Source of the DNA: Macrostomum lignano
Taxonomy: Eukaryota
Direction of reading: 5' to 3'
DNA: 64,000 bases
Assembly (NCBI GenBank): GCA_002269645.1
Contig: NIVC01000764.1
Location: 209,749 to 273,748, forward strand
Shown here: positions 28,839-64,000 of the stretch, piece by piece
How the letters are laid out: each line of letters opens with the position of its first letter
Numbering within the stretch: the first letter of the stretch is position 1
The notes under the pieces: model-generated
The model's database searches: none
Seen by the model: only the letters and a program-made list of their open reading frames with translations
What the model was told of the DNA's origin: nothing
Made by a program: the position numbers and the translations under genes

Positions 28839-28869
28839 AACTGATTGCGTCAGGGATCTCGCTTATATA
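28839..28869 (-). promoter_or_regulatory. Internal TATA + Inr promoter upstream of ORF3
   Basis: TATATAAG (28869-28862) and TCAGTT with A at 28842, 74 nt upstream of the ATG at 28768. Confidence 0.65.
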
Positions 28870-29094
28870 GGTTTACAAACATTCCACTTTGGGGGGTATC
28901 ATGTTTCAAGCTTATTCAAACAAACAATTATTTGTTTAAATGGCAGGTCTTCTCTCATTGGCTGATGATTCTTCCTTATTGGCTGTCGGTCTCTTCGCCT
29001 CTCTCCTCCTATCCACGGCCTCGAAATCCCTTCACTTCTACGCCTCCTCTCATTGGCTCTCACTCCTCCTTCTCCTTCCTTCCTTCTCCTCCAC

Positions 29095-30813: not shown

Positions 30814-33800
30814 TTGGGTAGGAAGTCAACTAATAATGCTCCAACCTTCAGCGTGCCATACTCCTCACTGTGCTCAGATTGTGGGGTGACTCTGCTCGAT
30901 TGCATAATGCAGGAGCTCTGTGTTTTCACACTGTCAATCCTTACACTCTTCTCACCAGAGACTATTTTATTCCTCTGTGGCTCAGGGGGGTTGGTCTCTC
31001 CTTCTCTCAGCTCAGTGGGGGGCTGGGTCAGATCGCTCATGCTGTCCTTAGCCTTCCCATTCTGGTTCTGCTTTGCACACACGCGTTCGCTGGGGATAAA
31101 CTCCTCTTTATCAGTTCTTATCTCTTGGTTCACTTCGGCTCTTACGCCTTTGCTGGTGATTTTGCTTATCTCTCGACTCTTCTTCTCGGCTTCCGCCTTC
31201 TCATTGGCTTTACAATCTGGCTGGGCAGCCTCGGCTGGCCTTCGGGACAAGCTATCGGCATTTGAATGTTTCGCGCCACTCCTATGCTCGATTTCAAATT
31301 GAAACTCGTTGAGGCGCTCAATCCATCTGCCTAAAATGCCCTGGGCTTCTGTCTGCCTTAATAACCAAAGTATAGCCTTATGGTCGGTCCTAGCTAGAAA
31401 TTTCTTTCCTATTAGATAGAAGCGGAAATGCCTCATGGCATCTACTAGAGCTAGCAACTCCTTGCGAGTTATGGGATAGCGTTTTTCTGACTCCTTCATA
31501 GCGCGACTAAAGTAGGCGATTGGTCTCTCGACACCGTCTGATTGGATTTGTCCTAAACAGGCACCTATGCGTCCATCACTGGCGTCTACATCGAGAACCA
31601 TCTTCACCTTCTCATTGTCTATGAACTCAGGGTATGCTAACACGTCAGTACTCATCATACGGGTTTTCAATAGCTCAAACGCTTCATCATGCTTTGCTGT
31701 CCATTTTGCTTGGAAGTTTTGAACTCCCTTACGAGTCAACTGGAAAAGAGGATGCGCTACTTCAGCATAATTTTTGACAAATCTGCTGTAGTAGTTGCAC
31801 AATCCTAAAAAGCTTCTTAATTCCTTTACTTCCTTTGGCTTTGGCCAGGTCCTAATGGCTTCAATCTTGGCTTCGTCTGTGCGAATGCCATCTCTGCCTA
31901 TCACATGGCCTAGATACTTGAGTTCAGAGTGAAATAAGTTGCACTTTTTCGCTCTCAACTTTAAACCTGCGGTGATCAATCTCTGAAACACCTCTCTTAG
32001 ATGGGATAAATGCTCCTCAAATTGCTTCGAGTAAGTAACTATATCGTCAATATACGACATTGCAAACTTATGCTGGATTCCGGCTAGCACTAAGTTCATC
32101 AGTCTTTGAAATGTACCGGGCGCGTTGGATAACCCTTGCGCCATAACCTGGTACTCAAACTGTCCTCGCGTCAGAGTAGAGAACGCGGTCATGAACTTAT
32201 GCTCTTCCTTTATAGGCACTTGCCAATAACCTGAGTTAAGATCTAAACTACTAAAGTACCTACTGCCAGTAAGATTAGAAAAAGTTTCTTGAATATTGGG
32301 GAGGGGATAGGGAAAATAGTTAACTCTAGAGTTGAGCACTCGGAAATCACTCACTATTCGGATGGTGCCATCCTTCTTTGGCACAATGACTAATGGGGTA
32401 GAATAGGTAGAATAGCAGGGGCGAATGAGATTCTTGGCTAGCATGTCGTCTAGCTGGGCGTCGACTTGCTTTTGGAGATGAGGGGGGATGCGGCGGGTAG
32501 GGATTCTAACAGGGGTCTCGTCCTTCAGGGAAATTTCATGAGTGACTAGATGAGTCAATCCCATGTCTAAATCATGCTGGGAAAATGCTTCTCTATTCTC
32601 TCTCACGAGATCAATTACTGCTTTTCGCTGACTTTCAGATAAATTGGCACCAATACTAATTTCGCTCACCCAAGCATCTTCAGTTGCCTGAGCTTGATAG
32701 ACACGTCCGGCGGGTTGTGCGGCATCTTCGGCAATTGTCGGCGAAGCTGATTCGGCGGCGGAAGGCGATGCTGACCAGTAGACGAGGTCCTTGGCTCTCA
32801 TGGGCTTGGCCAGACCAATCAATGTCGACTTCGGCAGTCTCACGTCGACAGAGTGTCGATTCACGATCTCCACGATGGCACTGCCGTCTCTCATGGTGAC
32901 CAATGTCGGAACCATCTCTACTGTCAATTCCTTGGCTCTCACGCCTTCTCCGATCACTTCTACTGTCATAGGAGTGCCATGATTGAGCTCATGGTCTTTC
33001 GCTAGCCTAATGGGAACTCTCAATGCACTATTAGCAGGTACTACTGCCTTTTCTCGAGTATAAACTCGGCAAATTCTAACTGCTTGGCGAGTGTACTGCA
33101 TAGGCACACAGAGGCCTCTTTTTAGTACAAGCATGCCATTGTCTAAATCAATGCTCTTACAGTGGGAAAGGAAGAAGTCCATGCCAAGAATGTTATCACA
33201 TTCATAGCTGCACAGCAAAAAGCTGGTATTAATTTGAATATCTCCAAAGGTTACAGACACACTAGCTTCTCCTTCTAGCTGCACTGAGGAACCATCAAAT
33301 GTGGTAACTCTCTTATTGGTTTCTCGGATTTGCTCTGTCTTGATCACCTTGGACCATACTGACTTGCTCAGGAAGCAGTTTCCGGCTCCGGTGTCAAGCA
33401 AGAAGTCAATTTCTTGACCTTCAACGTCTCCAAAGACAATTGCTTCGCTACTTTTCTCGCTTATCAAATCAACTTTTGCTTTCTCAGCTGCTTTCTTAGC
33501 TTCTCGATATTTCGCTTTGCGAGATTTTCTCGCCTTCTGCTTTGCATTTGCTGGCTTAGTCACTGGGGACTTTGTCAACTCGGATGCTGATGCTTTTGCA
33601 TCTGACTCACTGGGCTCTGACGCCAATAACTCAAACATATTAGGAGATAGCGCGATGGGAGACGCGCTGTTTACAAGTGCATTACGCATTGGTGCTCTAT
33701 ACATGGGTGCATTACGCGTTGGTGCATTACGCATTGGTGCATTATGCATTGAATTCCTGGAAAATGGGACTTGTCGCCATCCTCCAGGGAGTGGGTTGAA

Positions 33801-33896
33801 AACGGGTTTGCGGGAGAAATGAGAGGCCTGAGCTTTGCTTTGGGGTTTCCTAGAGGGACGTGGCCTCGAATATCGACCCTCGAATCCTAGTTTCCC
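30750..33896 (-). CDS. Gypsy pol: aspartic protease, RT, RNase H
   Basis: LLDTGA, LDLNSGYWQ, YIDD, LDVDAS, RTDHKA. The frame is open upstream to the gag stop. Confidence 0.97.
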   Translation of the reverse strand, partial: GKLGFEGRYSRPRPSRKPQSKAQASHFSRKPVFNPLPGGWRQVPFSRNSMHNAPMRNAPTRNAPMYRAPMRNALVNSASPIALSPNMFELLASEPSESDAKASASELTKSPVTKPANAKQKARKSRKAKYREAKKAAEKAKVDLISEKSSEAIVFGDVEGQEIDFLLDTGAGNCFLSKSVWSKVIKTEQIRETNKRVTTFDGSSVQLEGEASVSVTFGDIQINTSFLLCSYECDNILGMDFFLSHCKSIDLDNGMLVLKRGLCVPMQYTRQAVRICRVYTREKAVVPANSALRVPIRLAKDHELNHGTPMTVEVIGEGVRAKELTVEMVPTLVTMRDGSAIVEIVNRHSVDVRLPKSTLIGLAKPMRAKDLVYWSASPSAAESASPTIAEDAAQPAGRVYQAQATEDAWVSEISIGANLSESQRKAVIDLVRENREAFSQHDLDMGLTHLVTHEISLKDETPVRIPTRRIPPHLQKQVDAQLDDMLAKNLIRPCYSTYSTPLVIVPKKDGTIRIVSDFRVLNSRVNYFPYPLPNIQETFSNLTGSRYFSSLDLNSGYWQVPIKEEHKFMTAFSTLTRGQFEYQVMAQGLSNAPGTFQRLMNLVLAGIQHKFAMSYIDDIVTYSKQFEEHLSHLREVFQRLITAGLKLRAKKCNLFHSELKYLGHVIGRDGIRTDEAKIEAIRTWPKPKEVKELRSFLGLCNYYSRFVKNYAEVAHPLFQLTRKGVQNFQAKWTAKHDEAFELLKTRMMSTDVLAYPEFIDNEKVKMVLDVDASDGRIGACLGQIQSDGVERPIAYFSRAMKESEKRYPITRKELLALVDAMRHFRFYLIGKKFLARTDHKAILWLLRQTEAQGILGRWIERLNEFQFEIEHRSGAKHSNADSLSRRPAEAAQPDCKANEKAEAEKKSREISKITSKGVRAEVNQEIRTDKEEFIPSERVCAKQNQNGKAKDSMSDLTQPPTELREGETNPPEPQRNKIVSGEKSVRIDSVKTQSSCIMQSSRVTPQSEHSEEYGTLKVGALLVDFLPNPLRKSRSLMPSEKTPIFALC
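33887..33896 (-). promoter_or_regulatory. -1 ribosomal frameshift site G_GGA_AAC followed by TAG
   Basis: Heptamer at 33896-33890; pol is open in the -1 frame; a hairpin-forming sequence lies ~8 nt downstream. Confidence 0.8.
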
Positions 33897-34786
33897 TGAT
33901 TGGGGTTGCGGGCAGGGAATCGACTCTGGTTGTTAAAGCCAGGTCGCACTACATTCTGTGTTGGCTTCCACGGAATCTGCCTCCTTATCTGCTGCTGCAT
34001 CAGCGGGCGAAGCTGTGGCTGGAACGCCTGAACTCTTGGCTGATAGTATTGCGGCCTAGTCTGAGTAACTGGCGGCTGCTGCTTTTCAGCTTGCAGTTCC
34101 TGAATTAGCTTCTTCTGCTCTTCGAGCTCAGATTTCTGCTGCTTAATTAGCTTTTCTAACTTGCTCTTCTCATCATCTTCGTCTCTCACGACTCTGACAC
34201 CGTTCTTATGCGACATATGCCAGGCTGCTTCTATTCTCCTAAGCATGCGTCTGGCCTCCTGCAGGCTAGTGGGCTGAGCAAAAATGAGTTTCTCCCGGGT
34301 ATCGGAGGAAATTCTTACTCCCTTGATAAATTGCTCGATTACTTCCTCTTCACGCTGTTCTGCGTTCATATTTGGGAACGCCCTAGCTGCTAGTTCGATC
34401 AAAGCATCGGCGAACACGTCGGTTGCCTCGTTTCTACCCTGCATCCTACCTCTAAACTCCTCTCTGCACTCGGATGAACTACCAATCCGGCCAAATCTTT
34501 CTACCAATCTCTCCTTAAACTCCTCATACGTCAAATCCTCAGGTAGATTTAATCGCTGCACTGCTGCAAACGCAGTCGATAAGTCTAGATTGGCTAATAG
34601 TTCAGTCTTCCTGTGCTCTTGGTCTATCCCTTCCTGATCACACCTTTGGTCGAATGCGGTTAACCATATTCGCACATCCTGGCTGGGAGTGTACTTTTGG
34701 ATCTTTACATGCCTCATAGGCCCTAGTTCTAGCCTGTTCCTAAGCTCCTCTGCTAATAAACCTATAGCGTCATTAAGTGCTGCCAT
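33887..34786 (-). CDS. Gag (no CCHC knuckle seen)
   Basis: Retrotrans_gag-like segment (EFRGRMQGRNEATDVFADAL...FIKG) followed by a coiled coil; located after the PBS. Confidence 0.9.
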   Translation of the reverse strand: MAALNDAIGLLAEELRNRLELGPMRHVKIQKYTPSQDVRIWLTAFDQRCDQEGIDQEHRKTELLANLDLSTAFAAVQRLNLPEDLTYEEFKERLVERFGRIGSSSECREEFRGRMQGRNEATDVFADALIELAARAFPNMNAEQREEEVIEQFIKGVRISSDTREKLIFAQPTSLQEARRMLRRIEAAWHMSHKNGVRVVRDEDDEKSKLEKLIKQQKSELEEQKKLIQELQAEKQQPPVTQTRPQYYQPRVQAFQPQLRPLMQQQIRRQIPWKPTQNVVRPGFNNQSRFPARNPNQGN

Positions 34787-34848
34787 TGTACTCTCACGTT
34801 ATTTGCTGTACTCTCACGTTATTTGCTGTACTCTCACGTTATTTGCTG
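34787..34848. repeat. 3 x 20-bp tandem repeat in the Gypsy 5' UTR
   Basis: tgtactctcacgttatttgc x3, directly before the gag ATG. Confidence 0.95.
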
Positions 34849-45104: not shown

Positions 45105-46589
45105 TCAAGCTGGCGAACTTCTTTCATGTTCAGACGACTCGAGCTCTTGAGCTTCCTGGTCAGCTAGTAAACTGGAGGCCAGAGGCCACGAGATCTTCTC
45201 CCAGTAGGCGATAGCGATTAGCAACAGGCAGATGACGCAGCCGTACGCATAGTGAGACATTGGCTTCGTCCTATTGCTGGGATCCAGACTCAGCACGTTG
45301 CAGGCCTGAAGTGTCAACAGAACTAAGCCGTTTAGAAAGACTGACAGTCCCCAGACCGTGTAGAAAATCCCCAGCATAGTCGCTTTGGCGCCAGAGTTAG
45401 CAACCCGGTAGACGATCTCATAGATTGCAATTGTAGTCAACACTGTAGTGATACCGTCGCAGAAAGCTGATGCGAAGTAGATCGCCCACACTGTCGAGGA
45501 ACTCCAGCTCTCGATGTTGATTGCATTATAGAAGTCGAGCAGACTCAGCAGCATCAGTGAAACTTTGGAGGCGGTCATGAGACAGAGACCAGCTCTGGTG
45601 CGCGTCATCAGGTTTATGCACCCAGCTGGAGTACCAAACTTGTAGATTGCAGAAGCTCCGAGCAGGCTGAACAAAGTAGTGGCTGTCTGGTACCCAGCAA
45701 AAGGAACAAAAAAGGCCCAGTAATCATCGACGCCATGAGTGCGTGCAAAGAATCTGATCTGTTGCCAGTAAAAGTTGACTCTACATAACAAAATGCAGGC
45801 CAGATGCGGAATGGTTCCCGCCGAAATCAGATAAAACTTTTTAAGCCTTCTCCCGCTTGGAAGCATAAAGTATTGAACATTTTCTTGTTCTAGCTCAGGA
45901 GTTTTATTCCACAAAGTCACCATCGTCAGACACAAGACACTCACTATGCTGAAAATTACACTAGAAAATTCGAAACTCTTCTCTGTTAGGTACTTCAGCA
46001 TTGACGGCATGGTTCCTAATGTCTCGCCAATGGCTGCAACGGCAAAGTAGAGGCAGAGCACGAGCTGTCTGGCCCGACTGCTCGAGGCAATCTGCATCGG
46101 CGCATGCAGAGCAAGTGAGCTGACGATGCCCATGAAGAGCACAAACGGTAGCCACGACATGGCATACAGCGGCATCCTGCAAGACATGCCGGCTGACTCG
46201 AAGGTTGTCAGCAGGCCGCTACCGCTCAGCTGCAGCACAGCTGCAATCCACAGCGTCTTGATGCACCCGACGAAAGCGTCGGATATCAGGCCTCCGAGCG
46301 TCGGCAGCACAAAAGCGGCGGTCGCGAGGGGAAGAATTTTGATATTTATTAAGCTGTTCGGAGTCTGTTTTTGATAGATGCACAGACCAGCTTCGGCGGC
46401 TGTTTGATTGTAGGATTTCACGTCGAATGAGATCATTTGATACTCGTACATGTTGCTGCAGAGCTTCATGATGAGCAGAAACGTCACAGTGGTTTTGGTT
46501 GTTTTGCTCATTTGCCGTGATCTTCCACGTCTGGTTAGGAGTAACGCAGACTCGCTCTGCGCCCCATCGAGGGGCGTGTTTAAGGGCAT
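45105..46589 (-). CDS. Divergent POT/PTR2 (SLC15-like) MFS transporter, intronless
   Basis: Multiple hydrophobic helices; LPTLGGLISDAFVGCIKT; YEIVYRVANSGAKATMLGIF; N-terminal ExxxLL motif (ESALLL). Confidence 0.75.
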   Translation of the reverse strand: MPLNTPLDGAQSESALLLTRRGRSRQMSKTTKTTVTFLLIMKLCSNMYEYQMISFDVKSYNQTAAEAGLCIYQKQTPNSLINIKILPLATAAFVLPTLGGLISDAFVGCIKTLWIAAVLQLSGSGLLTTFESAGMSCRMPLYAMSWLPFVLFMGIVSSLALHAPMQIASSSRARQLVLCLYFAVAAIGETLGTMPSMLKYLTEKSFEFSSVIFSIVSVLCLTMVTLWNKTPELEQENVQYFMLPSGRRLKKFYLISAGTIPHLACILLCRVNFYWQQIRFFARTHGVDDYWAFFVPFAGYQTATTLFSLLGASAIYKFGTPAGCINLMTRTRAGLCLMTASKVSLMLLSLLDFYNAINIESWSSSTVWAIYFASAFCDGITTVLTTIAIYEIVYRVANSGAKATMLGIFYTVWGLSVFLNGLVLLTLQACNVLSLDPSNRTKPMSHYAYGCVICLLLIAIAYWEKISWPLASSLLADQEAQELESSEHERSSPA

Positions 46590-49500
46590 GGCTTTATCTG
46601 TTATGTTCGTAACTTATTTGCTTAGTAAAATACTTGTTATGCCTTTAACACAGGTAAATTTAAACTGTCAATGCATATCTTGATATTTATCGTTGTGTAA
46701 ACATCTACCCGGCGCATGCTTGGTACACATACATATTTTCGAATATTGAAGTTCCTTTTTGTGCAGCAATCTTAAAACGAACCTTGCCATGTCTGGAACA
46801 ACCAATCACAGGAAGGAAGACATTCTGACTTTGCAATGATCGTTCCTTCAAGTTAAGATTTTGAAAAAGGCAAGCAAAAGGTTAATTTCCAAGCCTGTAA
46901 ATTTTTTCTCTAAATATATAGCGTTAGGATGCATATGGTGCCATAGTCATGGCTTGGTGCAATTTTGAGTAGCCGTAGAGTTGTACTTTGGGAGCAGTGT
47001 GAGCAGTGTGGCAATGTGAGGACCTGCCAGACTGCCGTCCTGCTTAACAATTCAAAGACTCGGAAACTGACAGATTCTATTGAACAGCAGCTTGACTCGA
47101 AGCATCCAGTGAAACATTTCCCTTAAGAAACGAGCATTAGGAACTATACAAAGTCAAAAGCTGCGTGTTTCATTCATTGTATCAGCTTTTCTTTGTCGCC
47201 TTCCCAACGGGGTCCAAGGTTGCCAGTCATTACCACAGTTATCACCCTTGGCTCGCGCGTCTTTACTTTATATTCATGCATCCACAGTACGTGTTAGAGC
47301 ACTCAATTGGTTATCGTGCTGGGAATTGGAACCAGAAAGGGGAACAAATTCAAATGGTACAGCTAGATAATACAATCGAGAGTACGCGTGTTCCTATCCG
47401 ACTTCGCTTTCTCAATGTGGTGCTGGAGCGCTGAGCTCTAGGCACTGGCTAACTAACTAACTTATGCTATGTACGTGCATCGTACGTGCACACCATTCTT
47501 TCCTCTCCCTTCACTCTGACTGGCCATCCCCTAAGCCGCCATGTACTTGTATTTATCATCACGTGACTTTATTTCGGTGTTCTCTCAGCCCCTGCTCGTG
47601 TCATTATTTAATAAGCTACTTGCTAGTTAAAATAAACCTTGAGTTTCTTTATGCCAAGTTCACGGCACGACACTCAAGCTAAGATACTTTGCTTGCTATA
47701 CTTACTCTTCAGTAGTCGAGAAGCATTGTGTTGTTAAACTGGGGTGGAAAGCGTGTGCTTACCGCGGATCAGCCCGGGGAGGGGCTCTGCCGCTGTATAT
47801 ATTAGGGGCCATACTATCAGGGGCATAAAGCCAGAGAGGTCCAGATTGGGACTAGGACTCAGGGCCAAGTTAAATTGGCTTATTGGATGCTACTAGCCCA
47901 AGCCTATGAACACCGCCAACCCAACAGTGGAATCAGGACGGCAGGTGCAAAGACTGATCCACCCAAGCCACCAACCAACGACAAAACCCGAGTGTGCGCG
48001 CGCAAAAAAGATTGAAATGAAAAATTTTTGAAATGTTTTGAAAATTATTGATTTTTTGAAAGCATGTCCAAGAGCGGGAGACTCGAGTCTTTCATATCTT
48101 TCATATTTTTATTACCCAGCTATAATAAGCCCAAGCCAAGGGGTTGGAGAGGAGTACCATGAAGCAAAAGGACCACCGGGCTCAGCCGGTTTTCCCCGAT
48201 TCGGGACAAACTCTTCCCCAGGACACCAATCCAATGAGAGCCAGAGACACAATAAGCAGGGAGACAACCAGAGGAGCCAGCAGATGTACCAAGGGAGAGC
48301 AAGATGGACAAGAAAAGGGCAGAGCTCATAACTCCAAAGATTGGACGGCTGCATGGCAAAGGGATAAAACACAAAGCTAAAACACAAAGGGATAAAAACA
48401 ATAGGGAGGAGCACAACCCTTATTATGGGCTCAGCCTCAGGGCTGGCATCAACTGGGCTCTACCGTACACTTTTGTGAATGGTCGTCTTTCCTGCAGGGC
48501 GAGTACGACCAGGGGGCTCAAGTCCCAATCTAGCCGCACTACAATCCAGAGTCACAATCACTCCAGATACACCCCCTTAACCAAGGCAGGGCCGAAATAG
48601 AAAAATAAAGGGTCTATTTTTAGATGTGCACGTCACCTCCTGTGAGGGAACTTAAGTATAGAACTACCCGAGGGGCAGGTCAAGTGGATTGCGCACAACC
48701 CGAGAAATGCCGCCAGAAGGCAGCCGGGGAAAAACAATCAGAAAACAGTCTCGAGAAGCATTCGAGTCAACATCGGCTGAAATGCATACTAGCTTCAATT
48801 GGAATTATTGAGCTGTCCATGTTAATGAACCCTAATTATCGTACTTTATGGGTATTAGTCAACCATTTTGTTTATTGATACCCTTCATAGGGGTATCTGA
48901 TTTTACCAAGTTCACCCATTGTCTTAGTCAGTTTACTCACTCGAGTTCAACTTACAGTATTAATAACTGATTAATTTTTTTCAAACGTTTCGAATAGAGA
49001 CGATTCGTGGGAATAATATTACACTGTATGCCTTCAAAATGGGGAACTGTTATGAAGCTTGATTCCTACACGAACCGAAACACAGGTAAACTACCAAGAC
49101 GCATGCGCAGCATCCATAGGTGTAGGTAGCTCGTACGTACGTATGTTGGAAAAAATTAAATGAAACAATCACGCGCGAAACGTATTTTCTGAATATAAAA
49201 GTTTTAATTTACTATTAACCAAGCAATAGTCTGGGCAAGTAGGCATGAAAGGTAAAAAAAATTCAATAGAAACAGGCAGTCTGGCGTGTGCGCATTGCAG
49301 TTGACTGCGCAGACAGAAATAAGCTTTATAGTTCTAGACTATTTCTCAGAAGGAATATCATTCTTTGAGTTACGCGCAATGCCTGAAAATGTCGAATTTT
49401 TTCTTCTATGCGATTTTCAATGCTGGGAAACCCTGCATGGCCTTCCCAACGATAAATATTAACCAAAGAATATAAATCTTTTTATGATCCAGAAACTTAA

Positions 49501-53553: not shown

Positions 53554-54377
53554 CTATTCGTGGTATTTCTTCAGGTGACGGCCATTGCTCGCTGTATATC
53601 TCCCTTCGAGTCCGTACAGGTTGTTGCTTAGGACACGTTCGACTGTGTAAACCTTGACGCACCATGGTGTCTTCACTTTGCTGCCTTTCCGATCGTCGCG
53701 GACAAAGTTCCGCAGCAGCACTTTGTCTCCGGTTTTGATGCTGAGGCTGCTGGCAGACGCCAGACGCTGCTGATGGTACTGCTGCATAGCTTGCTGCGCC
53801 CGACGGATGCGTCGACGCATCAACTCAATGGTCCGCCCACGCGCTTCTGCCTTTCTCTCTACATGACGAATCGTGACGTCACCGACCATGGCAACGTCTG
53901 CTGGTCCGATGCTGTCATGGGAAAGTCGTGGTTCGTTGCCGAACACGGCCTTGTAAGGCGAGACGCCAGTTGTCGAGTGCACGCGACTGTTGTACGCCAG
54001 AACTGCGCCATCGACATAATAATCATCCCATACCGCTGAGTCAGAGTCCTGGTCGCACATTTTGCACAGGGCTGCGACCAAGCTCTGGTTGAGGCGCTCG
54101 CACTGACCGTTGGTCTGAAAGAGCATAGTCAGTTATTTAATATCGAATACGATTTTATTCGAACTGGACTTATAACAGAGAGCATGTAAGGGAAAAATAT
54201 TCACTTCACTAACCTGGGGGGTGATAAGCAGAGGTTCGTCTCTTATCAATATTCTCAGACAGGGCAGCTCATTAGATTGTTGTTGAACTCTCGTCCCTGG
54301 TCGGTCAACAAGATGTCGGGCCAGGAGAAGACGCAGACGGCCTTGTACAGCTGTTCTGCGGCTGTCTGTGCGTCGTT
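53554..54377 (-). mobile_element. Ginger-type DDE integrase/transposase 3' part with a 99-bp intron, truncated by the Polinton
   Basis: TDQGREF...SAYHPQ|intron 54213-54115 (GT..AG)|TNGQCERLNQSL; C-terminal GDKVLLRN..RKGSK..NGRHLK. Confidence 0.82.
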
Positions 54378-54859
54378 AGTAGTATGAGTTTATGCAACTC
54401 TGCCGCACTTGCACTGCGGAGATAGGCGGTAATGTAAAAGGATAGTAGGGCGTAAAAGAGCCAGCTGAGATAGCCAATGGAAATAAGGGCGTGGGGTGGG
54501 TGTGATTGGCTGGGTGGTGAAACGCTTATGCAACTCTGCCGCACTGGGGGAGGCAGGTAGCAAAGCAAAGCATCGGAAGGTTTTGGAATAGCAGAGTAAA
54601 CAAATTAAAAACAAGGTAGGCATGGCGTGGAAACGTCCACCTCAATTTGTGCCTGGCTCGGCAACTCCTCAGCGTCCCCCACTGTATTTATCCTATAGCA
54701 TGTCTATGCACTATTTGTCAGTGCGGAGTGAAATAGATAAGAGAGAGGCTCTGATCTTCTTGAGTGTCTGGCTCTGGCGATTCTAATAAATGGGCAATAA
54801 ACTTTGTAACGGGTGCGGGGCTTGAGTGGAAAGGGTAGGGTTGGAAGTGGAGGTGAGGT

Positions 54860-55165
54860 TGGTGAGCTCTAAAACAGTTGTTCAACTCTGCCGCACTTTC
54901 ACTGTGCAGGGACAGAGAGGTGAGCTCTAAAAAACAGTTGTTCAACTCTGCCGCACTTTCACTGTGCAGGGACAGAGAGGTGAGCTCTAAAAAACAGTTG
55001 TTCAACTCTGCCGCACTTTCACTGTGCAGGGACAGAGAGGTGAGCTCTAAAAAACAGTTGTTCAACTCTGCCGCACTTTCACTGTGCAGGGACAGAGAGG
55101 TGAGCTCTAAAACAGTTGTTCAACTCTGCCGCACTTTAATGTGCAGGGACAGAGAGGTGGGCTCT
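54860..55165. repeat. 5 x 60/58-bp tandem array in the left terminal region
   Basis: gaggtgagctctaaaaaacagttgttcaactctgccgcactttcactgtgcagggacaga; core caactctgccgcact also at about 54396 and 54531. Confidence 0.95.
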
Positions 55166-55311: not shown

Positions 55312-55320
55312 GTATATAAG
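55312..55320 (+). promoter_or_regulatory. TATA box upstream of the PC4 gene
   Basis: GTATATAAG, 86 nt before the ATG. Confidence 0.6.
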
Positions 55321-55405: not shown

Positions 55406-56137
55406 ATGGATATTAGTGAAGGTTACAGAGTGCAGGTGCAAGAATTCGAAGGCCAGAAATACATCGCGATCAGGAAGTTTTACCGACATGGCAGCACAGC
55501 AAGCCTCAAGCCTGGTGTTCCTGGCTTCAACCTGAATGTGCAGCAGTGGACGAAGCTAAAGGACTTAAAGCGCTCCCTGGTGAAGTTGGCTCTGAACAAC
55601 GAGCTCAAGGTCATCAAGCTGGGCTTCGACAAATTTGTTCAAGTCAAGGATGGCCTCATCTGGCTAAAGCGGCTGCCTGAGGACTGCTGTGATGAATTTA
55701 TGAAGCGCAACACCGTGCCACTGTCTCCGAAGCTCTGGCAGAAGCTGTGGCAGACTTCGGACTGGATAGACCAGCAGCTATCAGAGCCCTACCAAGGTGC
55801 GGGGGCGAAGTACGAGCTGAGCTCATCCGAAGATGAGGACGAAGACGCCACCCTCATACTGCCGGTCAAGACTGAGGCTGCTGAAGGCGAGGAGGAGGTC
55901 GGCTCACCATCAGAGATGACAACCGACATCGAGGCTGTGACTTCCACACCTTTGGCCAGAGCCGGCACATCGACTGGGAACATCCCGGCGGAGGACACGG
56001 ACCTACAGCAGGATCCGGTGTGGTACCGATTCCGGGCTCATGCCGCTGAGGTGGAGAACAATCGGAAGCGGAAACTGCCGTATCCTCTGCGCAGGCAGGA
56101 GACAATGAAGGTGTCTAAGCTGCGTTTTGAAGACTAA
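55406..56137 (+). CDS. Tandem PC4/Sub1-like ssDNA-binding domains + acidic tail
   Basis: VQVQEFEGQKYIAIRKFY..KPGVPGFNLNVQQWTKLK, and a second copy LGFDKFVQVK..VPLSPKLWQKL..DWIDQQL. Confidence 0.8.
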   Translation: MDISEGYRVQVQEFEGQKYIAIRKFYRHGSTASLKPGVPGFNLNVQQWTKLKDLKRSLVKLALNNELKVIKLGFDKFVQVKDGLIWLKRLPEDCCDEFMKRNTVPLSPKLWQKLWQTSDWIDQQLSEPYQGAGAKYELSSSEDEDEDATLILPVKTEAAEGEEEVGSPSEMTTDIEAVTSTPLARAGTSTGNIPAEDTDLQQDPVWYRFRAHAAEVENNRKRKLPYPLRRQETMKVSKLRFED

Positions 56138-56504
56138 GCTGGAGGTTGGATGTGACTGATGAGACTCAATGGATAATTCAGTTTGGTTAGCTTTTGTCTA
56201 ATTTTATTCAGCTAATTTAAGTTTTGACAATTGTCGTAACCGTTTAGTCTTATTTATTCAGGTGTTAACAAACCAAGTTTATACTTAAATGCATGCAATT
56301 TATACTTATTTGCACTACTCAGTGTTACTATTTCCTGCAATCTTCTTTTCAAGATCACCAACTGTTCGCAGTCCCCAAGTTAAAAAATATAATAAGTGTA
56401 CGCTGTATGAGTTTAATATTGGAATATAACATGTCTTTAAAAACGCCAATCGTTGTTCTTAAGAAGAACATACCTGCGTACGTCTGGTTCTTTTTCATTT
56501 GAGG

Positions 56505-57571
56505 ATGGAAAAAATTTACTTTGACCCACAACAGCCGGCTAGTTTTTCTAGTGCTTCCAAACTGTTGAATGAAGTTAGGAGAAGAGGAGATCGCATATCC
56601 ACTAAGTGCATAGAACAGTGGCTCAGTGAGCAGCCAGTGCACACCCTACACAAGCCAGCTAGAAGGCGATATCCAAGGGCCCCAATCATAGTGCGGGCTA
56701 TCGATGATCAGTGGGAACTTGACTTGGTAGAAATGATTCCTTTCGCAAAGTATAATAAAGGCTACAAATATATTCTTACATGTATTGACGTACTGTCAAA
56801 GTGTGCTTGGGCCAAGGCACTGAAAAATAAAACTGCTACAGAAGTGAAGTCAGCTTTCGAGAGCATACTGAGAAGTTCAAAGCGCCAGCCACACACAGTT
56901 CGCACAGATCAGGGGAAGGAATTTATCAACTCCACTTTCCGTCAATACTGTATTGACAGAGGGATTCTGGCTTTCCCAACTAACAGCGAGCAGAAGGCGG
57001 CTGTCATTGAGCGATGGAATCGGACTCTGAAAAGTAGAATGTGGCGCTACTTCACCTACAAGAGCACACTGCACTGGCTTGATGTGCTGCCTAAGCTGGT
57101 AAAATCTTACAACAATACTAACCACAGAAGCATCAAAATGGCACCCACTAGTGTCTGCAAAGAGAATGAATCTGAAGTGTGGATGAACCTGTACGATGGA
57201 AAAGCAGCCGAGACTCTAGAAAAATTAAGGAAGCCTAAGTTCGCTGAAAACCAGTCGGTGAGAATTTCCAATGCTCCACGGCTATTCAAAAAGGGATACA
57301 AAGCGAGCTGGAGTGAGGAAGTGTACACCGTGGTGAGCAGAGCCCCAAAACATTATCCCTACATGTACAAGATTAGGGACATGAAGGGGAAGAGATTCGA
57401 GGACTCTTCCATGAGCACGAGCTGCAGGCTGTCCCGGACTCACAGCGGCTGTATGTGATTGAGAAGATCCTGGAAACGGAGAAGCAGAAGGGAAAAATTC
57501 GCTATCTGGTGAAGTGGGCCGGCTACGACTCGACTGGCTGGGTGGATGAAAAAGACTTAAGAAAGGTTTAG
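56505..57571 (+). CDS. Polinton retroviral-type integrase with a C-terminal chromodomain (one frameshift)
   Basis: WELDLVEM, CIDVLSK, TDQGKEF, ERWNRTLK. Adding one G at 57386-57389 gives YVIEKIL..YLVKWAGYDSTGWV. Confidence 0.93.
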
Positions 57572-57590: not shown

Positions 57591-58418
57591 ATGAAGTTTA
57601 TCATTATAATGCGAACTATTTTGATTAACAGTGAGCATGCTGAAGGTACTCCTAGTGACTTTAATTTTTACCTGCCTTCACCTATTTACTTGGATCGAAA
57701 TGTAGACTATGAGGCAGGTCTGGCTAAAATCCATCTGCCTGCTGCATGGTTCAATGTTGACGAGCCTTACTGCTTCACTGTCTCAGATGGAAGAGAGCAT
57801 GAGGCCCTGGTTCTTCAACCCGGACGTTTTGCTAGAGTGGAGGAGCTGGTGAAGCGCCTGAATGAGCTGCTGGCCAACTCTGATTCGCTGTTCTTTGATG
57901 CAATGAGTGACAGGGAGTCTGAGATGGAGGCTGATGAGTCCGGCCTGATGGGGCGTAGTGGCAACAGGGAATTCGGTATGAAGTTCGAAATCCGCAACTC
58001 ACGAACTGTGGTGCACAACAACACGACGAGAGCAGAGCTGTTTCTCCCATCCAGCAAAATTCTGCATTGGCTGGGATTTGGAAACCAGGCTGTGAAAATC
58101 CAGCCAGGGAGCCGCGTGTCCGAGCATTGCATTGGCTGTCCGCGCACCAGCTTAATCAATGTACACTGCAGTGTCGTTGAGTCAACTAATTGCAACTGGG
58201 GCTCCTTGTTGAGAACAGTTGGAATGAAAGCTGGCATTGAATGGGGCAACTATCAAACAAAAATATTTAAGAAAACAATATTCTTCCCGATTCAACGAAT
58301 CAGTCTTCTTCACAGCATTCGAGTTCAGCTGCGGGACATCTATGGTTGCCCACTGATTGCCCAGACTCACAGCCCTGTTCTGCTCACAGTTCAGATTCGG
58401 GAGAAACGCATTCAATGA
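57591..58418 (+). CDS. Minor capsid protein (penton)
   Basis: SDFNFYLPSPIYL..YEAGLAKIHLP; INVHCSVVE..LLRTV; IRVQLRDIYG; located upstream of the MCP. Confidence 0.8.
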   Translation: MKFIIIMRTILINSEHAEGTPSDFNFYLPSPIYLDRNVDYEAGLAKIHLPAAWFNVDEPYCFTVSDGREHEALVLQPGRFARVEELVKRLNELLANSDSLFFDAMSDRESEMEADESGLMGRSGNREFGMKFEIRNSRTVVHNNTTRAELFLPSSKILHWLGFGNQAVKIQPGSRVSEHCIGCPRTSLINVHCSVVESTNCNWGSLLRTVGMKAGIEWGNYQTKIFKKTIFFPIQRISLLHSIRVQLRDIYGCPLIAQTHSPVLLTVQIREKRIQ

Positions 58419-58804
58419 ACTATCAGCAGCTAATCCAGCAATATTCGGGGGTGAGGACAGCACACGAAAAGCCTGCACTCTATGGCTGTGGGAGCTTTCC
58501 GGGGATCATGACAAACCAGCCTCCTCCAGCGGCTACATCATTATCCTCAACGCTTAGCAATGTCAGGCGCAAAAGAAATGCTGAAGCAAGTCCGAAACGA
58601 TTGAAGAAGAAGAAGCGCACCCGAAAGGCAACTGGTGGCGATCGCACCAATAAGAGGTGCAATGGAAGAAAGCCGAGCAAGGCTAGTAGGAAAAAGCTTA
58701 AGAATAGGAAGACGAAAGCAAAGAAGAATAGAGCAGGCGGAGGAAAGCGAAAGCAAAAAGTCAGCAAGAAAACTGTGAAACGCGTGCTCGACTCTCCGTC
58801 ATAG
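58415..58804 (+). CDS. Lys/Arg-rich putative core/DNA-condensing protein
   Basis: ATG overlaps the penton stop (ATGA); very basic C-terminal half; lies between penton and hexon. Confidence 0.65.
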   Translation: MNYQQLIQQYSGVRTAHEKPALYGCGSFPGIMTNQPPPAATSLSSTLSNVRRKRNAEASPKRLKKKKRTRKATGGDRTNKRCNGRKPSKASRKKLKNRKTKAKKNRAGGGKRKQKVSKKTVKRVLDSPS

Positions 58805-58806
58805 AC

Positions 58807-60051
58807 ATGGCTTACGGATTCAATCCCAGACTTGATTTATTTAAAACGCCCGTTTTACAAACCTGCATTGAAAAAGCTACTTATGTTGATATTCACCCAG
58901 TTAATTCCATTACTGCAAACTCCCCCATTGAATTTGACTGCCACCAATCTGCCGATGAATACACAGATCTGCTTAATTCTTTTCTTTATATTCGCTGCCG
59001 CCTTGTGAGACTGGATGGGGGTTTGCTGAGGGAGGATGTTCGAGATGGAGATGGCATCATCACCGATTGCAGAGACAGTGACGTGCACCCAGAAAACTTT
59101 GTTCTGTCTACAGCCTTCTCAGATGTAATTGTGAGCATTAACCAGCGAGTGGTGTCTGGTGGAGACCAGCTCTATCCCTACCATGCGTACTTCAAAGCAC
59201 TAATGAGCTCATCTGATGCCCAGCAACTAAAACTTTACCCAGCTGGCTTCCTGGAGCCGGACTCTGCAGCTGAAGAGCACACGGAGAGCCACAGGGAATC
59301 CCGATGGATGGAGTATGCGGGGCCACTCTTCAGCAATCTGCACTTGCACATCAAACTGGTCCCCAGCGATGGGGCCTTTGCCATCAGAACCCCGAATGCA
59401 AACAACGCGGCTTATCGCATGGAAATCTCTCACAGCATTCTGCATCTTCGCCGAGTCAAAGTGGTGCCCCACATCAGCCTGGCTCACGAGCAGGGGCTGA
59501 CAAACCAAAATGCACTGTATCCCATCGAGCGAACTGAAATGCAGAACTTCATCCTACCCCAGGGCATTCAATCTAAAAACATTGAAGGATTCACTCATGG
59601 AAAATTGCCGAAGTTCATCATGCTGGCCTTCGTGAGCCACCGAGCATTCAACGGTCATCATCACGCGAGTCCGTTCCAGTTCCAGAGCTTCAACCTCAGC
59701 CGGTTGGCTCTAAAGAAAGGTGGAGAGACCGTGTGCCACGGCGCCTTCACACCTGAAAACAATTCCTTTGTAAGAGAATACTTGCACTACATGAAAAGCT
59801 GTCAATCTGCAAGCAATTCGGTCCCGTGGATCCCCTACCAGCTCTTCTCCAACAACAACACGGTGTTTGCATTCGATCTCACACCAGAGGGAGCGGCTCT
59901 GTGGTACGGACAGAAGGAGGGCAACCTGCTGCTGGAGATTCGCTTCCGACAGGCTCTGGACGAAACGGTGTCCCTGATCGCTCTGTGCCTGTATGACTCG
60001 TTGATTGAGGTCACCAAGCACCGGGAGCTTTTGCTGGACTATTCCTCTTAA
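58807..60051 (+). CDS. Double jelly-roll major capsid protein (hexon)
   Basis: LDLFKTP.LQT.IE..YVDIHP..NSPIEF; YPYHAYF; LPKFIMLAFV; NTVFAFDLTP; GNLLLEIRF..AL. Confidence 0.92.
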   Translation: MAYGFNPRLDLFKTPVLQTCIEKATYVDIHPVNSITANSPIEFDCHQSADEYTDLLNSFLYIRCRLVRLDGGLLREDVRDGDGIITDCRDSDVHPENFVLSTAFSDVIVSINQRVVSGGDQLYPYHAYFKALMSSSDAQQLKLYPAGFLEPDSAAEEHTESHRESRWMEYAGPLFSNLHLHIKLVPSDGAFAIRTPNANNAAYRMEISHSILHLRRVKVVPHISLAHEQGLTNQNALYPIERTEMQNFILPQGIQSKNIEGFTHGKLPKFIMLAFVSHRAFNGHHHASPFQFQSFNLSRLALKKGGETVCHGAFTPENNSFVREYLHYMKSCQSASNSVPWIPYQLFSNNNTVFAFDLTPEGAALWYGQKEGNLLLEIRFRQALDETVSLIALCLYDSLIEVTKHRELLLDYSS

Positions 60052-60056
60052 TTGGC

Positions 60057-60566
60057 ATGGACGCAATTCAACTACTTAATCTCGCCAGAAAATTTTTGTC
60101 TTGCCGAAAATTTCTCATCATTACTTTACATTCACGCTATAAAAATGTTTTGCCTTTGAGTCTAAAAAGAAAATATCGATCAATTTCCTTTGAAAATAAG
60201 TTTGTTTTTGTTCTACTACAGCACAATGGTTCATTTGGTCATTGGGTGGTGTGCTATGTTGGACAAGGAAATTGCATTGAGCTGTTCAACTCCCTCGGCT
60301 GGGAACCTGAAATTTTATCTGTGGTTTATAATTTGTTTCGAGAGATTAAAACAACTGGCTTTTGGCTCCGAAGCAATATAAACAGATTTCAATGTGCTAA
60401 CTCTAATAAATGCGGAATGTTTTGCATCTATTTTGCTTATCAAAAGTTTCTGTTCAATCGGTCATTTGAGGGGATTTTGAAGCATTTGCATGCTAATGAA
60501 AAAAATCATTTGAATGATAGAATCTTACAGAGGTTTGAAGCCAACTTAAGAAAAAGATGTGCGTGA
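60057..60566 (+). CDS. Adenain-like cysteine protease
   Basis: GHWV, ELFNSLG, FQ...SNKCGMFCIYF. Confidence 0.9.
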   Translation: MDAIQLLNLARKFLSCRKFLIITLHSRYKNVLPLSLKRKYRSISFENKFVFVLLQHNGSFGHWVVCYVGQGNCIELFNSLGWEPEILSVVYNLFREIKTTGFWLRSNINRFQCANSNKCGMFCIYFAYQKFLFNRSFEGILKHLHANEKNHLNDRILQRFEANLRKRCA

Positions 60567-60589: not shown

Positions 60590-61235
60590 ATGGCAGAAAA
60601 GCGAGTTTGCCACGATATCCGCCTCAGGCAGGGAAGCTGCATGATTGTCTGCGGGCCCACCAATGCAGGAAAAACAACCTTCATCAAACACCTGATCCAG
60701 TACAGAGACGTCATGTTTGATGTGAAGCCTGGCAGAGTTCTGTGGTACTATGGGATCTCACAGGCAGGCCATGCAGAACTGAGCAGCCTAGGTGTGCAGC
60801 TGCGCCAGGGATTTCCCACCAACATCGAGGCAGCACTTAGGCCCAATGACCTGGTTGTTTTCGATGACTTAATAGAGGAAACTTCAAACTCTGCTTCAAT
60901 GCGAAATTTTTTCACAGGAATCGCACATCACTTGCCGTGCTTTTTGGTGATGCTGACTCAGAATATATTTTTCAAGGGAAAAGAGTCGCGAACAATGAGC
61001 TTGAATGTAATGTACTTAGCTATCTTGAAAAACCCCAGAGACCAGCTGCAGATTGCAGCACTGGGCAGGCAGTGCTTTACAGAGAAGCCCGGCTTTCTGC
61101 TGTCAGTGTTCAAGCACGTGACCGCGCAGGGCAGGGGAGCCTACCTGTTCCTGACTTTCACCATCAACTCCCGATGAGCTGCGAGTGCGGGCCAGAATTT
61201 TACCCAACCAGCGACCCCATCTTGTATTTGCTTAA
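60590..61235 (+). CDS. A32/FtsK-like packaging ATPase (two 1-nt shifts near the 3' end)
   Basis: GPTNAGKT (Walker A), VVFDDL (Walker B), TQNIF, LKNPRD; restored end YLFLDFHHQTPDELRVRARIL. Confidence 0.92.
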
Positions 61236-61276
61236 GAAAGTGAAGCTTGTTTTTATCAGCTATTGTTTTCATCGCT

Positions 61277-61615
61277 ATGGAAGTGCTTGATTCACATGCA
61301 AGTATTTTTGCGGTTCTTGCGTCACCTAAATATACCGTGCGCTTCAAGCGGCTGTTGATAAAAAATTGTCCAAAAGAAGTGCGTTATTTTCTTGTCGAGG
61401 CCTGCCATAATCTCTTACAAAACAATATATCGTTTTCGCTCGATGAAAAAGCTGTTCTTGCAAAGTCAAAAGAGATAATTCGAAAGATTACTCACAAAAG
61501 AAGAAAGACAGACTTGTTGAAGGCTGGCTTCATTAAAATACTCCCGATTCTGCTTAAGCTGGTAAAGAAGAAGAAGCAAAATGAACAAATTTTCAGAAAT
61601 GGTTCTGATTCCTAA
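61277..61615 (+). CDS. Conserved small basic Polinton/adintovirus protein
   Basis: KRLLIKNCPKEV..LVEACHNLLQNNI..IIRKI resembles a recurrent Polinton ORF (from recollection). Confidence 0.6.
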   Translation: MEVLDSHASIFAVLASPKYTVRFKRLLIKNCPKEVRYFLVEACHNLLQNNISFSLDEKAVLAKSKEIIRKITHKRRKTDLLKAGFIKILPILLKLVKKKKQNEQIFRNGSDS

Positions 61616-62272
61616 AGCAGAGTATGAGATGTTGATGCAGAATTTGAAGCCAAATGAGAATAGCACTGACGCTAACTTGAAGCAGGCTCAGAAGAAATGC
61701 GATGATATCTTGTATGCCGAAGATTGTCCAGAAGATGTGAAAACCACCATGTATCAAAGTGCTATGCAAAGTTTGCTGGCCAAACGCAAGCACGCTGGAA
61801 AAGAAGGAGTACGCAATGCTGAAGCCAAGTTGATGAAAACAGAGACACCACAGATGAACACCTGGGAAGAGAAGATCAGCAAGTCGGTGCCACAGAAATT
61901 CAAAACCAGGGCTCGCAGTCTATGGACGATCCTGTCCACCAATCCAGAGCTGATTCGAGTTTGTGAAAACGGGAGGTGGAAATCACAGGCACGTCAATCC
62001 CTTCCTCAAACATACTGGACTTGATTCAGCACGCAGTGAGGGATTCGCCATGTGAGCGTGAACCAGTTGGGTGGAACGAGTTCATCGATTTGCTGCAGCA
62101 GAAAAAGCTTAATGTTCCGCTTTCCGCTGTTGGTAAATCAGTTAAAAAGAAAATGGCAAACAGCAGAGGGAGTGAACTGGAGAAAGAACAGGAGAGTCTA
62201 GTCAAGGGGTACGGGAGCAACACAGCCTGGCTGAAACTGCCTGCCAGAAAAGTATATAAGAAGGTGGACTGA
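61581..62272 (+). CDS. Conserved Polinton/adintovirus protein (one frameshift at 61971-61973)
   Basis: MVLIPK..YEML; VPQKFKTRARSLW; ENG(E)VEITGTSIPSSNILDLI..EPVGWNEF. Confidence 0.7.
62252..62260 (+). promoter_or_regulatory. TATA box upstream of the exonuclease-like/TBP-like genes
   Basis: GTATATAAG, identical to 55312-55320; 41 nt before ATG 62301. Confidence 0.55.
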
Positions 62273-62300: not shown

Positions 62301-62817
62301 ATGAACTACATTGACTTCCAAGGATTCCCGTGCAACAGCACAAGCAAAAGATTTGTTGTGAAAGAGTTGGCAGTTGTTCAAGTCAGAGCGGGAAGCTACC
62401 GAATTGCTCACCATGTGTACGCACCTCCGTATCCATGGGAGAGAGTCTCCACTGACATGCGAGCTTGCTACAGACAGCTATCAAAGAGTCTGCACCAGTT
62501 TAAGTGGAGTGATGGAACCCGTCCGTACATGGAACTGGCGGAAGACATTCTGAGGATTGCCAGTGGTCCGATATGGACAAATGGGGAAAGGAAGTCTATT
62601 TTCCTGACTGAGCTGCTTGGTAGACAGGTTTATACCTAGAAGATTTGGGACACCCTCGATTAAAGATTCAGATACTGGCTGTGCAGTGAGAAATTCATTG
62701 CTGCACTACAGTTGGCTTAAGCCAAAGTTCTGCATCAACTTAAGAAGCGAGCAGTGTCCGTGCACAGGGGCAGTGAAGTTGGCAGAAGATTTGGTGAAGA
62801 AGTCAGGATCTAAATGA
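62301..62817 (+). CDS. DnaQ/DEDD-like exonuclease-fold protein (two 1-nt shifts at about 62633 and 62648)
   Basis: YIDFQGF..KELA..PPYPW..HQFKWSDG..PY..(N)LEDLG(T)PS. Confidence 0.55.
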
Positions 62818-63422
62818 GCCACCTGCAGCTACAGCCCTAAGAGTGAGCAATCTGGTTGGCGGAGTGGATCTGAGACTGGATGGTGGCAGGGGCGCCCCAG
62901 TTGCCTCTACGGGAACTGCTCTCAGCATGGCTCATGTGATCTACCGGCGCCGTCTGGCTCATGTGATCTACCGGCCCGTCTGGCCCCGGGTGCTCATCAA
63001 GCGGATGCGAGTCCAGAGAGTGACTCTGCTACTCTACCCTACTGACAACTGAGCATCTGTGGCGCCAAGACCCACGCAGACGCCAAAAGGGCTGCCCGTC
63101 GCTTCATGGCTATGCTGCATCGGAGAGTGCCGGATCAACTGCTGCCTCATCAAACTATTTGTGTTCAAATTAAAACTATTACTGCTCATGGACGTTTTAA
63201 GCTCCAAAATGCGCTACCGCTTACTGAACTTGTTAAAGTTTTGCCCAAAGCCCAGTATGAACCAGAAACATTTTCAGCTTTAGTTTGTCAACTTAAGTAT
63301 TGTAAATGCTTGCTTTTTCATAATGCTTCTTATATTCTAAGTGGGCAAAATCTCTGCGTATGCTAAAATCCGACAGTTCTTCCCTGTTTCGCTCTGTTAA
63401 CACACTTATGCAACTAAAATAA
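62814..63422 (+). CDS. TATA-binding-protein (TBP)-like protein, two repeats, broken by 1-nt shifts and a 27-bp duplication
   Basis: Repeat 1: VSNLVGGVDL..IYRP..VTLLLYPT(G)QLSICGAKTHADAKRAARRF. Repeat 2: IKTIT..LTELV..QYEPETFSAL..CLLFHNASYILSG(A)K. Confidence 0.85.
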
Positions 63423-63778: not shown

Positions 63779-64000
63779 TTATTGCAGGATCCTCATTTGC
63801 TTGGGAGCCTGATCAGCAGCTAGTTGAGGTGCTTCTCGATTGTAACGGCGGCAGCTGTGGCGGCAGAGGTCTCTTAAAGCAAAGTGCCCATACGGAAGAC
63901 TTTGTTTGGGGAAGTCCACGCACGCTTGTCCTCCCCCATACAGTCAGGGCACGCTTCTGTTGCTCTAAAGTGACTACTCTGTGTCGTCGGCTAGCGATTC
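63779..64000 (-). CDS. Protein-primed DNA polymerase B, C-terminal end (partial, frameshifted)
   Basis: Minus strand gives IASRRHRVVTLEQQKRAL..EDKRAW..(S)LPYGHF, matching the pPolB C-terminal K.AL..DDKR..LPYGH pattern. Confidence 0.8.

Follow-up and report, generated by a model that had tools for sequence, protein, structure and literature searches.

A conserved TBP-like gene in two Polinton families of Macrostomum lignano and a candidate promoter box before most of their left-arm genes

This locus of Macrostomum lignano bears on the timing of virion gene expression in endogenous Polintons and on whether a helper virus is needed for it. Maverick particles have not been observed, according to the abstract of the vertebrate Maverick survey (PMC8097293). 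The window analysed here is a stretch of 64,000 nucleotides of contig NIVC01000764.1, and positions refer to it unless another contig or locus is named. A first-pass annotation, made from the sequence alone, had described a two-repeat TBP-like protein near its end, encoded by a Polinton, and had read it as a viral TBP paralogue with altered promoter specificity or as a decoy of host TBP.

The gene belongs to a Polinton of about 16 kb with AGT-repeat terminal inverted repeats at its ends, a 6-bp target duplication, a retroviral-type integrase and a protein-primed family B polymerase (pPolB). Its left module runs in the order PC4-like gene, integrase, putative penton, basic ORF, putative major capsid protein (MCP), protease, ATPase, ORF X, ORF Y, exonuclease-like gene and TBP-like gene, and the pPolB converges from the right. 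Hereafter, A1 is the subfamily of the window element, A2 a subfamily at 77% DNA identity, and B a second Polinton family. The following features were assigned.

54372..54377, no strand: target-site duplication, left copy, 6 bp; on contig C765 these 6 bases stand again after the right terminus.
54378..54860, plus strand: left terminal inverted repeat, starting AGTAGT; 99% inverted match at C765:6653-7135.
55313..55320, plus strand: canonical TATA box TATATAAG at a distance of 93 nt upstream of the PC4-like gene; found in the sequence, putative in function.
55406..56137, plus strand: PC4/p15-like gene (PF02229, E=6e-9).
56458..56465, plus strand: YWTAAGAA box of the integrase gene; the A2 subfamily has its own.
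56505..57458, plus strand: retroviral-type integrase (PF00665, E=1.3e-12); the frame ends early in the window copy.
57556..57563, plus strand: YWTAAGAA box of the minor capsid gene, kept in A1, A2 and B.
57591..58418, plus strand: putative minor capsid (penton) gene, so labelled from its position and a presumed resemblance to the penton gene; no Pfam match.
58266..58273, plus strand: YWTAAGAA box of the basic ORF, about 149 nt upstream; equivalent place in A2 and B.
58415..58804, plus strand: Lys/Arg-rich (basic) ORF, putative core protein by its sequence.
58697..58704, plus strand: YWTAAGAA box of the MCP gene, about 110 nt upstream; at -106 in B, 6/7 bases in A2.
58807..60051, plus strand: putative MCP, which we take to resemble Polinton PY; no Pfam match; 85% identical to A2, with A2 44% identical to B.
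60057..60566, plus strand: adenain-like cysteine protease (PF00770, E=0.003, below the cut-off); box absent in A1, A2 and B.
60545..60552, plus strand: YWTAAGAA box of the ATPase gene; not found in B.
60590..61177, plus strand: packaging ATPase; Walker A by eye, Pox_A32 weak at E=0.017.
61231..61238, plus strand: YWTAAGAA box of ORF X, present in A1, A2 and B.
61277..62272, plus strand: ORF X, followed by ORF Y; families A and B conserve both, and in the window copy ORF Y is broken and has no strict box.
62255..62262, plus strand: YWTAAGAA box of the exonuclease-like gene, overlapping a canonical TATATAAG; at 31/31 family A and 13/13 family B start sites in the fetched loci, duplicates included.
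62301..62813, plus strand: exonuclease-like gene, labelled by eye.
62739..62746, plus strand: YWTAAGAA box of the TBP-like gene, family A only (37/38 A sites, 0/5 B sites).
62814..63422, plus strand: TBP-like gene, with a two-lobed TBP fold; broken in this assembly copy.
63170..63195, plus strand: recombination junction inside the TBP-like gene, at about codon 119-121.
63813..64000, minus strand: convergent pPolB, of which only the extreme 3' end lies inside the window.

The protease and ATPase are weak Pfam matches, and the capsid labels come from position and recall. The TBP-like gene had been placed between an exonuclease-like gene and the pPolB; the polymerase was borne out by a sibling arm (L052), in which PF03175 was matched at E=1.1e-21, while Pfam is silent on the exonuclease label. 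Both pPolB proteins at L051 3078-4955 and L052 3-3032 also contain an endonuclease VII domain (PF02945). Inside the left end, about five tandem 60-bp units are found at 54866-55160, with a core common to the terminal repeat. Inverted repeat pairs spaced 15-26 kb apart were observed on contigs C96, C1424, C4659, C986, C1547 and C2498. To the left of the element, the window contains a GnT-I-like gene that looks intronless and is split over two frames (PF03071, 49895-51510, minus strand), a membrane-transporter-like ORF of 502 aa with no Pfam match (45105-46613, minus strand) and, beside and upstream of the Polinton, Gypsy-like retroelement remains recognised by eye (53554-54132 and 27770-34798, both minus strand).

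In the window copy, the TBP-like gene was found as pieces across three frames, which together make a two-repeat TBP running from the ATG at 62814 to the stop at 63420-63422. The TBP similarity, motifs and coordinates described at first were all present. The middle fragment alone matched PF00352 in Pfam (E=2.9e-8), and in the open-frame sibling copy P0001, of 194 aa, the domain search returned two PF00352 repeats (E=4.3e-21), as expected of a TBP fold. The first-pass annotation had joined the pieces by two single-base repairs. Breaks were indeed found near 63044 and 63343, but alignment with five sibling copies gave 8 indel events and not 2: the net frame is broken near 62819, 63044 and 63343, two short segments (62895-62918 and 63010-63015) are out of frame, and 27 nt are duplicated in tandem near 62928. 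Across 2.47 kb, the window and one sibling differed by 15 substitutions and 18 indel events, an indel excess that we infer to be typical of long-read consensus error. Contig C765 differed from the last 808 bases of the window by 0 substitutions and 6 indels and was in frame through 63343. Since it overlaps the window, carries the right terminal repeat and has the same 6 bases after it, C765 represents the same insertion as the window element, and the break at 63343 is thus most likely an assembly error. Short-read contigs, which pool all copies, disagreed with the window at five further break places. Taken together, the 8 indel events of this copy are probably assembly errors.

The gene is present in many copies. 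Its C-terminal fragment gave at least 149 matches in the genome (best 150 of 185 candidates scored), and 108 of the listed matches span the query at E<=5.6e-38, 94 of these 108 in stop-free frames of 187-221 codons; such locus counts are inflated, since host TBP and TLF each appear three times in the assembly. For at least 83 of 101 MCP places, a TBP match lies downstream in the same orientation, at 3.0-4.1 kb in 80 of these, and several of the 18 places without a TBP match sit near contig ends. Between subfamilies, dN was 0.008-0.024 against a dS of 0.05-0.15 in the 5' part of the gene, and 0.17-0.43 against a dS of 1.4 to saturated in the 3' part. Judged from these substitution rates, with dN/dS mostly around 0.1-0.3 between subfamilies, the TBP-like gene is under purifying selection.

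The two parts also have different histories, the gene being a mosaic in which codons 1-118 are near-identical between subfamilies (dS about 0.1) and the remainder has dS above 1.4. At the junction, inter-subfamily identity falls from 84-100% to 37-77%, and the frame is open over this mid-gene junction in each subfamily examined. Since the subfamilies have a common 5' part of the TBP gene and differing 3' parts and pPolB arms, modules appear to have been swapped inside the TBP-like gene. In most siblings, the exonuclease-like frame continues over the 5' half of the TBP gene for about 110 codons in another frame (window 62814-63145; L004 708-1622; L088 6705-7547). It reaches 278-283 aa in 25/31 loci scored (duplicates included), the A2 subfamily among them, and stops near the recombination junction; family B is without such an overlap.

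Family B was reached through integrase matches at 58-60% identity. A copy of this family has the same gene order, with a TBP-like ORF 36% identical to that of family A at the equivalent place and an MCP 44% identical. At least 24 near full-length family B TBP matches were obtained (best 150 of 196 candidates scored). The integrase gene of family B seems to contain a short GT-AG intron (L073, about 835-942). The PC4/p15-like gene codes for a second factor of general transcription or ssDNA binding and stands first in family A elements, behind the canonical TATA box; it was found in family A only among the matches listed genome-wide, with none on the family B copies listed. The genome has several further pPolB families (974 candidates, of which 91 were scored); one copy had fibre-like ORFs and no TBP match.

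Relatives exist outside this genome. Three public proteins are 63-67% identical to the family A protein and a fourth, P0015, is at 48%, while public orthologues of the family B protein are at 48-63%. In addition, about 28 compact TBP-like proteins of 168-210 aa, from metagenome contigs of up to 19 kb, form group C (P0035, P0036, P0041, P0065, P0097, P0149, P0150 and P0171-P0194). Group C may belong on the same tree side as A+B (support 91/87) and has the second Asn to Thr change in common with the Polinton TBPs; it possibly comes from other midsize DNA viruses. No relative was found in the viral contigs scanned. A metagenome scan gave 11 loci: four, L054-L057, are TBP loci of the usual archaeal or eukaryotic kind, and the remaining 7 are short weak matches.

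Natural open copies modelled with AF2 had pLDDT values of 88.9 in family A and 84.6 in family B, and for both models TBPs headed the Foldseek matches (A, E 4e-14 and TM 0.83; B, E 3e-13 and TM 0.64-0.66). Structure prediction, suggested as a check at the outset, thus returned a TBP for the open copy. Giant-virus TBP models scored lower than cellular TBPs, with TM 0.45-0.74 and mostly 8-20% identity, and BFVD matches had E down to 2e-11. In trees of 156, 39 and 29 rows, the subsets being picked from search matches, A+B formed a single clade apart from host TBP and TLF, with a support of 91 (FastTree), then 99/95 and 100/99. Forcing A+B together with host TBP was rejected with p-AU 0.025, in an AU test on the host TBP grouping and with long branches. 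Host TBP and TLF are present in three copies each (L021-L032) with intronless cores, and TLF is divergent.

These data bear on the simplest alternative, that the gene is a decayed host TBP retrocopy carried passively. The broken window copy and the intronless host TBP core are what it would predict; the open frames of 94/108 matches, dN below dS, only 25-28% identity to host TBP and the p-AU of 0.025 leave it a negligible probability. The reading as a viral TBP paralogue was thus upheld by the many open copies, the dN/dS pattern and the separate clade.

Residues were compared with host TBP by alignment, using numbers that we take to be those of yeast TBP. Families A and B both keep Asn69, Val71, Glu186-Pro-Glu188 (EPE), Phe190 and Phe207, and both carry Phe116 to Tyr, Thr124 to Cys and Gln158-Asn159 to Lys-Thr. 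Phe99 is Pro in A and Leu in B, and Pro191 is Ser in A and Asn in B. Of the intercalating Phe residues 2/4 are kept and of the central Asn residues 1/2, so the set differs from that of canonical TBP: the C-lobe Phe pair is retained and both N-lobe Phe positions are changed. The four Phe positions had been given as W/Y/F/F, with the second Asn as Thr. Y/F/F and the Asn change stand; the first Phe position aligns with Pro (Leu in family B), and the Trp lies one residue before. EPE, the TFIIB contact, is invariant in 12/12 aligned sequences. Helix 2, whose basic patch is the N-lobe surface for TFIIA, Mot1, TAF1 and Brf1, keeps its basic residues in family A and is acidic in family B, with the patch lost.

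Such a surface would also suit a decoy, that is, a protein that sequesters TFIIB, Mot1/BTAF1, NC2 or TAF1 and dampens host transcription without specific DNA reading. The invariant EPE, the basic helix 2 residues kept in family A and the changes at both N-lobe Phe positions and Asn159 agree with it. However, DNA-face residues are invariant across families only 32-36% identical (N13, V15, Y66, C74, K112, T113, F145, F160 and H161), and invariant changes on this face look like new specificity and not decay. The family B basic patch is lost as well, and a decoy leaves the box described below unexplained, so we regard this explanation as improbable.

The upstream regions of the element genes contain a candidate target for a TBP of altered promoter specificity. 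TAAGAA was the top motif upstream of genes in both families. The coding strand of the window element has 8 copies of WTAAGAA, all 8 at 34-148 nt before a start codon, and the opposite strand has 2. As the YWTAAGAA derived below, the box stands 35-149 nt before 8/11 left-arm genes in A1 (shuffle mean 0.29, 0/1000, with 62825 taken as the TBP start), in a test that is post hoc because the motif was found on A1 upstream windows. In family B, plus/minus counts were 8/0, with the box before 5/9 tested genes (shuffle mean 0.15, 0/1000); the set of 9 omits the basic ORF, whose site would make a sixth gene. A2 also gave 8/0, with 7 sites near starts. Its box cores match at 6-7/7 bases in flanks only 62-76% identical, and its integrase gene has its own box in unalignable non-coding DNA.

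Since several sites lie in upstream genes, coding constraint has to be considered. The box sites occupy different reading frames of the overlapping upstream genes. A codon-aware count gave expectations near starts of 0.84 against 5 seen in A2 and 1.29 against 5 in B, and far from starts of 1.24 against 1 seen (A2) and 0.45 against 0 (B); the family B ATPase frame was read with 10 stops in this count, the copy being frameshifted, and the basic ORF was begun one codon late, neither of which affects the observed site classes. The base before WTAAGAA is C or T at 21/21 start-proximal sites and a purine at 3/3 others, giving YWTAAGAA, with the 21 sites partly homologous and for this reason not independent. 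As an 8-mer, YWTAAGAA maps on TATAAAAG with G at position 6 and positions 1-2 relaxed. The nearest box lies about 35 nt from its ATG, a minimum that fits TATA geometry, and two site classes lie at 107-149 nt upstream. Over the whole window HTAAGAA is at chance (45 against 44.2), and the signal is thus local to the element.

The pattern also has gaps. There is no box before the protease gene in A1, A2 and B, no strict box before ORF Y, none before the ATPase or TBP genes in family B (TBP 0/5 loci) and 0 boxes on the polymerase strand of two partial right arms. In a third pPolB family used as a control, the box precedes 1/13 ORFs and no TBP match was found in 9.5 kb (one copy, one side, an AT-richer family). 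Contigs from 3 runs guessed to be RNA and 1 unlabelled run covered 30/30 element bins, intergenic ones too, and are uninformative on transcription or start sites. As a sequence pattern, a box shared by most integrase, virion and packaging genes suggests a built-in late-gene switch.

The TAAG core could have another origin. Baculovirus late promoters have a TAAG core, with DTAAG as the late motif, and the box might be a promoter of this baculovirus/nudivirus type, read by the RNA polymerase of a helper virus in a virophage-like sharing. The core does match DTAAG, and virophages and PLVs are given as sharing promoters in literature listings. Conservation nevertheless spans 8 bases, the sites stay at least about 35 nt from the ATG, though initiation inside TAAG would allow closer ones, and the TBP is left unexplained, which makes such sharing quite improbable. 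A LEF-8 search gave no match, and its positive control likewise gave none.

Nor does a role outside transcription account well for the data. The protein could bind nucleic acid for another job (terminal repeats, packaging or RNA), and the motif could be an RNA-level signal for splicing, trans-splicing or 3'-end formation. The motif is strand-specific, several boxes coincide with the 3' end of the preceding gene, and TBP lobes bind other duplexes in bacterial proteins, according to passages of PMC7221094. The integrase box, however, lies outside coding sequence and is found again at that place in DNA that cannot be aligned, and the TFIIB-contact glutamates are kept; the chance of this explanation seems slim.

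More weight has to be given to the possibility that the box does work as a promoter element but that TBP, TLF or a sequence-specific factor of the host reads it, while the viral TBP has another task or serves only as a general booster of initiation. Passages of PMC1636458 state that wild-type TBP accommodates G at position 6, and TATAAGAA-type sites may accordingly be read by the host. Solved structures of wild-type TBP on the T(-30) and G(-26) TATA variants exist, 4/21 boxes begin TATA, and the host holds a divergent TLF. The same source describes the C-lobe as reading the 5' half of the box, with Pro191 barring bases other than T at position 1. The first base is C at 14/21 boxes, which host TBP should then refuse, and the family without a TBP match in 9.5 kb, in the same host, lacks the gene-start pattern (one copy). 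Overall, we consider reading by a host factor unlikely.

Pro191 is lost in the viral TBP, which fits the C at position 1, and the N-lobe and central residue changes face the 3' half, the side where the G lies. Two points count against specific reading: with both N-lobe Phe positions altered, DNA binding as a whole could be weaker, and family B no longer has the basic patch of helix 2. From these sequence patterns, it appears somewhat probable that the viral TBP is a conserved, element-borne promoter-specificity factor for late genes, reading YWTAAGAA and recruiting host TFIIB and polymerase II. The altered promoter specificity proposed in the first-pass annotation thereby gained a candidate target, upstream of most left-arm genes.

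In the proposed mechanism, host TBP would first drive the genes with a canonical box, namely the PC4-like gene and perhaps the exonuclease-TBP unit. The viral TBP would then bind YWTAAGAA in the minor groove, and its conserved EPE stirrup would recruit host TFIIB and RNA polymerase II. Recruitment from the host is proposed because the element has neither TFIIB nor RNA polymerase: no TFIIB-family gene was found within elements, as 23/23 candidates were scored and 15/15 matches were at non-element loci, a search that a very divergent TFIIB could escape. The outcome would be an early-to-late switch like that of beta/gamma-herpesvirus vTBP-TATT, obtained from one minimal protein. A wider version, to which we give slightly less than even credence, is that an animal Polinton clade runs an autonomous early-to-late programme in which a single captured TBP of new specificity redirects host TFIIB and polymerase II to YWTAAGAA promoters, and that lineages co-evolved different boxes.

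If true, the lineages would supply naturally orthogonal TBP-TATA pairs, late promoters would be defined in Polintons for the first time, and an element of about 16 kb would have found an independent route to the herpesvirus late-promoter strategy. The protein would also be a naturally occurring TBP of altered specificity in which the surface for host TFIIB is retained, in contrast to the majority of viral TBPs in the passages of PMC7221094. A dedicated TBP with a candidate box makes a direct biochemical test possible.

The TBP had initially been held to lie outside the standard Polinton gene set, which is partly so. The Fig. 5 legend of Starrett 2021 on MELD viruses, in a section on non-animal datasets (PMC8502044), names a TBP-like gene in some MELD virus, and the searched text of that paper contains no analysis of it. 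TATA is not mentioned in the passages searched of the vertebrate Maverick survey (PMC8097293), nor among the term matches of 10.64898/2026.10.13.758929. TBP genes are mentioned in algal elements without a polymerase and without a jelly-roll capsid, in a passage of PMC10675990. The literature search, with subscription journals and Repbase entries outside its coverage, turned up no paper in which the TBP of a Polinton or its promoters are analysed. Polinton-like viruses with a TBP are thus already on record by name, and the box, with its recurrence in A2 and family B, and the residue pattern are new here.

Compared with Polintons/Mavericks/adintoviruses, as described in passages of PMC8502044 and PMC8097293, the window element has in common the AGTAGT//ACTACT termini, inverted repeats, 6-bp duplication, integrase, pPolB, protease, ATPase, putative capsids, convergent modules and a size of about 16-19 kb. 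It differs in the TBP gene fixed inside the left module, the PC4-like gene in family A and the shared upstream box. With cellular TBP/TLF (PF00352) the protein shares the two-lobe saddle fold (TM 0.83) and, in the presumed yeast numbering, the equivalents of Asn69, Val71, Phe190, Phe207 and Glu186/Glu188, whereas Phe99 to Pro/Leu, Phe116 to Tyr, Thr124 to Cys, Asn159 to Thr, Pro191 to Ser/Asn, the lack of an N-terminal extension and the separate clade set it apart. The baculovirus late promoter likewise has its TAAG core upstream of structural genes; here the consensus has 8 bases, the minimum spacing is about 35 nt and the element has no viral RNA polymerase. NCLDV and mirusvirus TBPs are also two-lobe TBPs of dsDNA viruses, and most viral TBPs have diverged at the two glutamates that contact TFIIB and bring their own TFIIB (passages of PMC7221094); in the present elements, EPE is invariant and none of the TFIIB matches lies within them. 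The closest functional parallel would be KSHV ORF24, a viral TBP mimic that sends host RNA polymerase II to viral late promoters (passages of PMC12529657), and the same logic is proposed here. A variant box and a viral TBP co-occur, by sequence, in Polinton families A and B. ORF24 is, however, large, acts in a multi-subunit complex and was modelled as incompatible with TFIIB binding (same passages), whereas the Polinton TBP is a bare core of about 190 aa with a TFIIB stirrup, the shared fold being the basis of the comparison. In conclusion, the TBP-like gene is real, conserved and unusual, and its product most likely works like herpesvirus vTBP, being neither a member of that system nor a canonical TBP.
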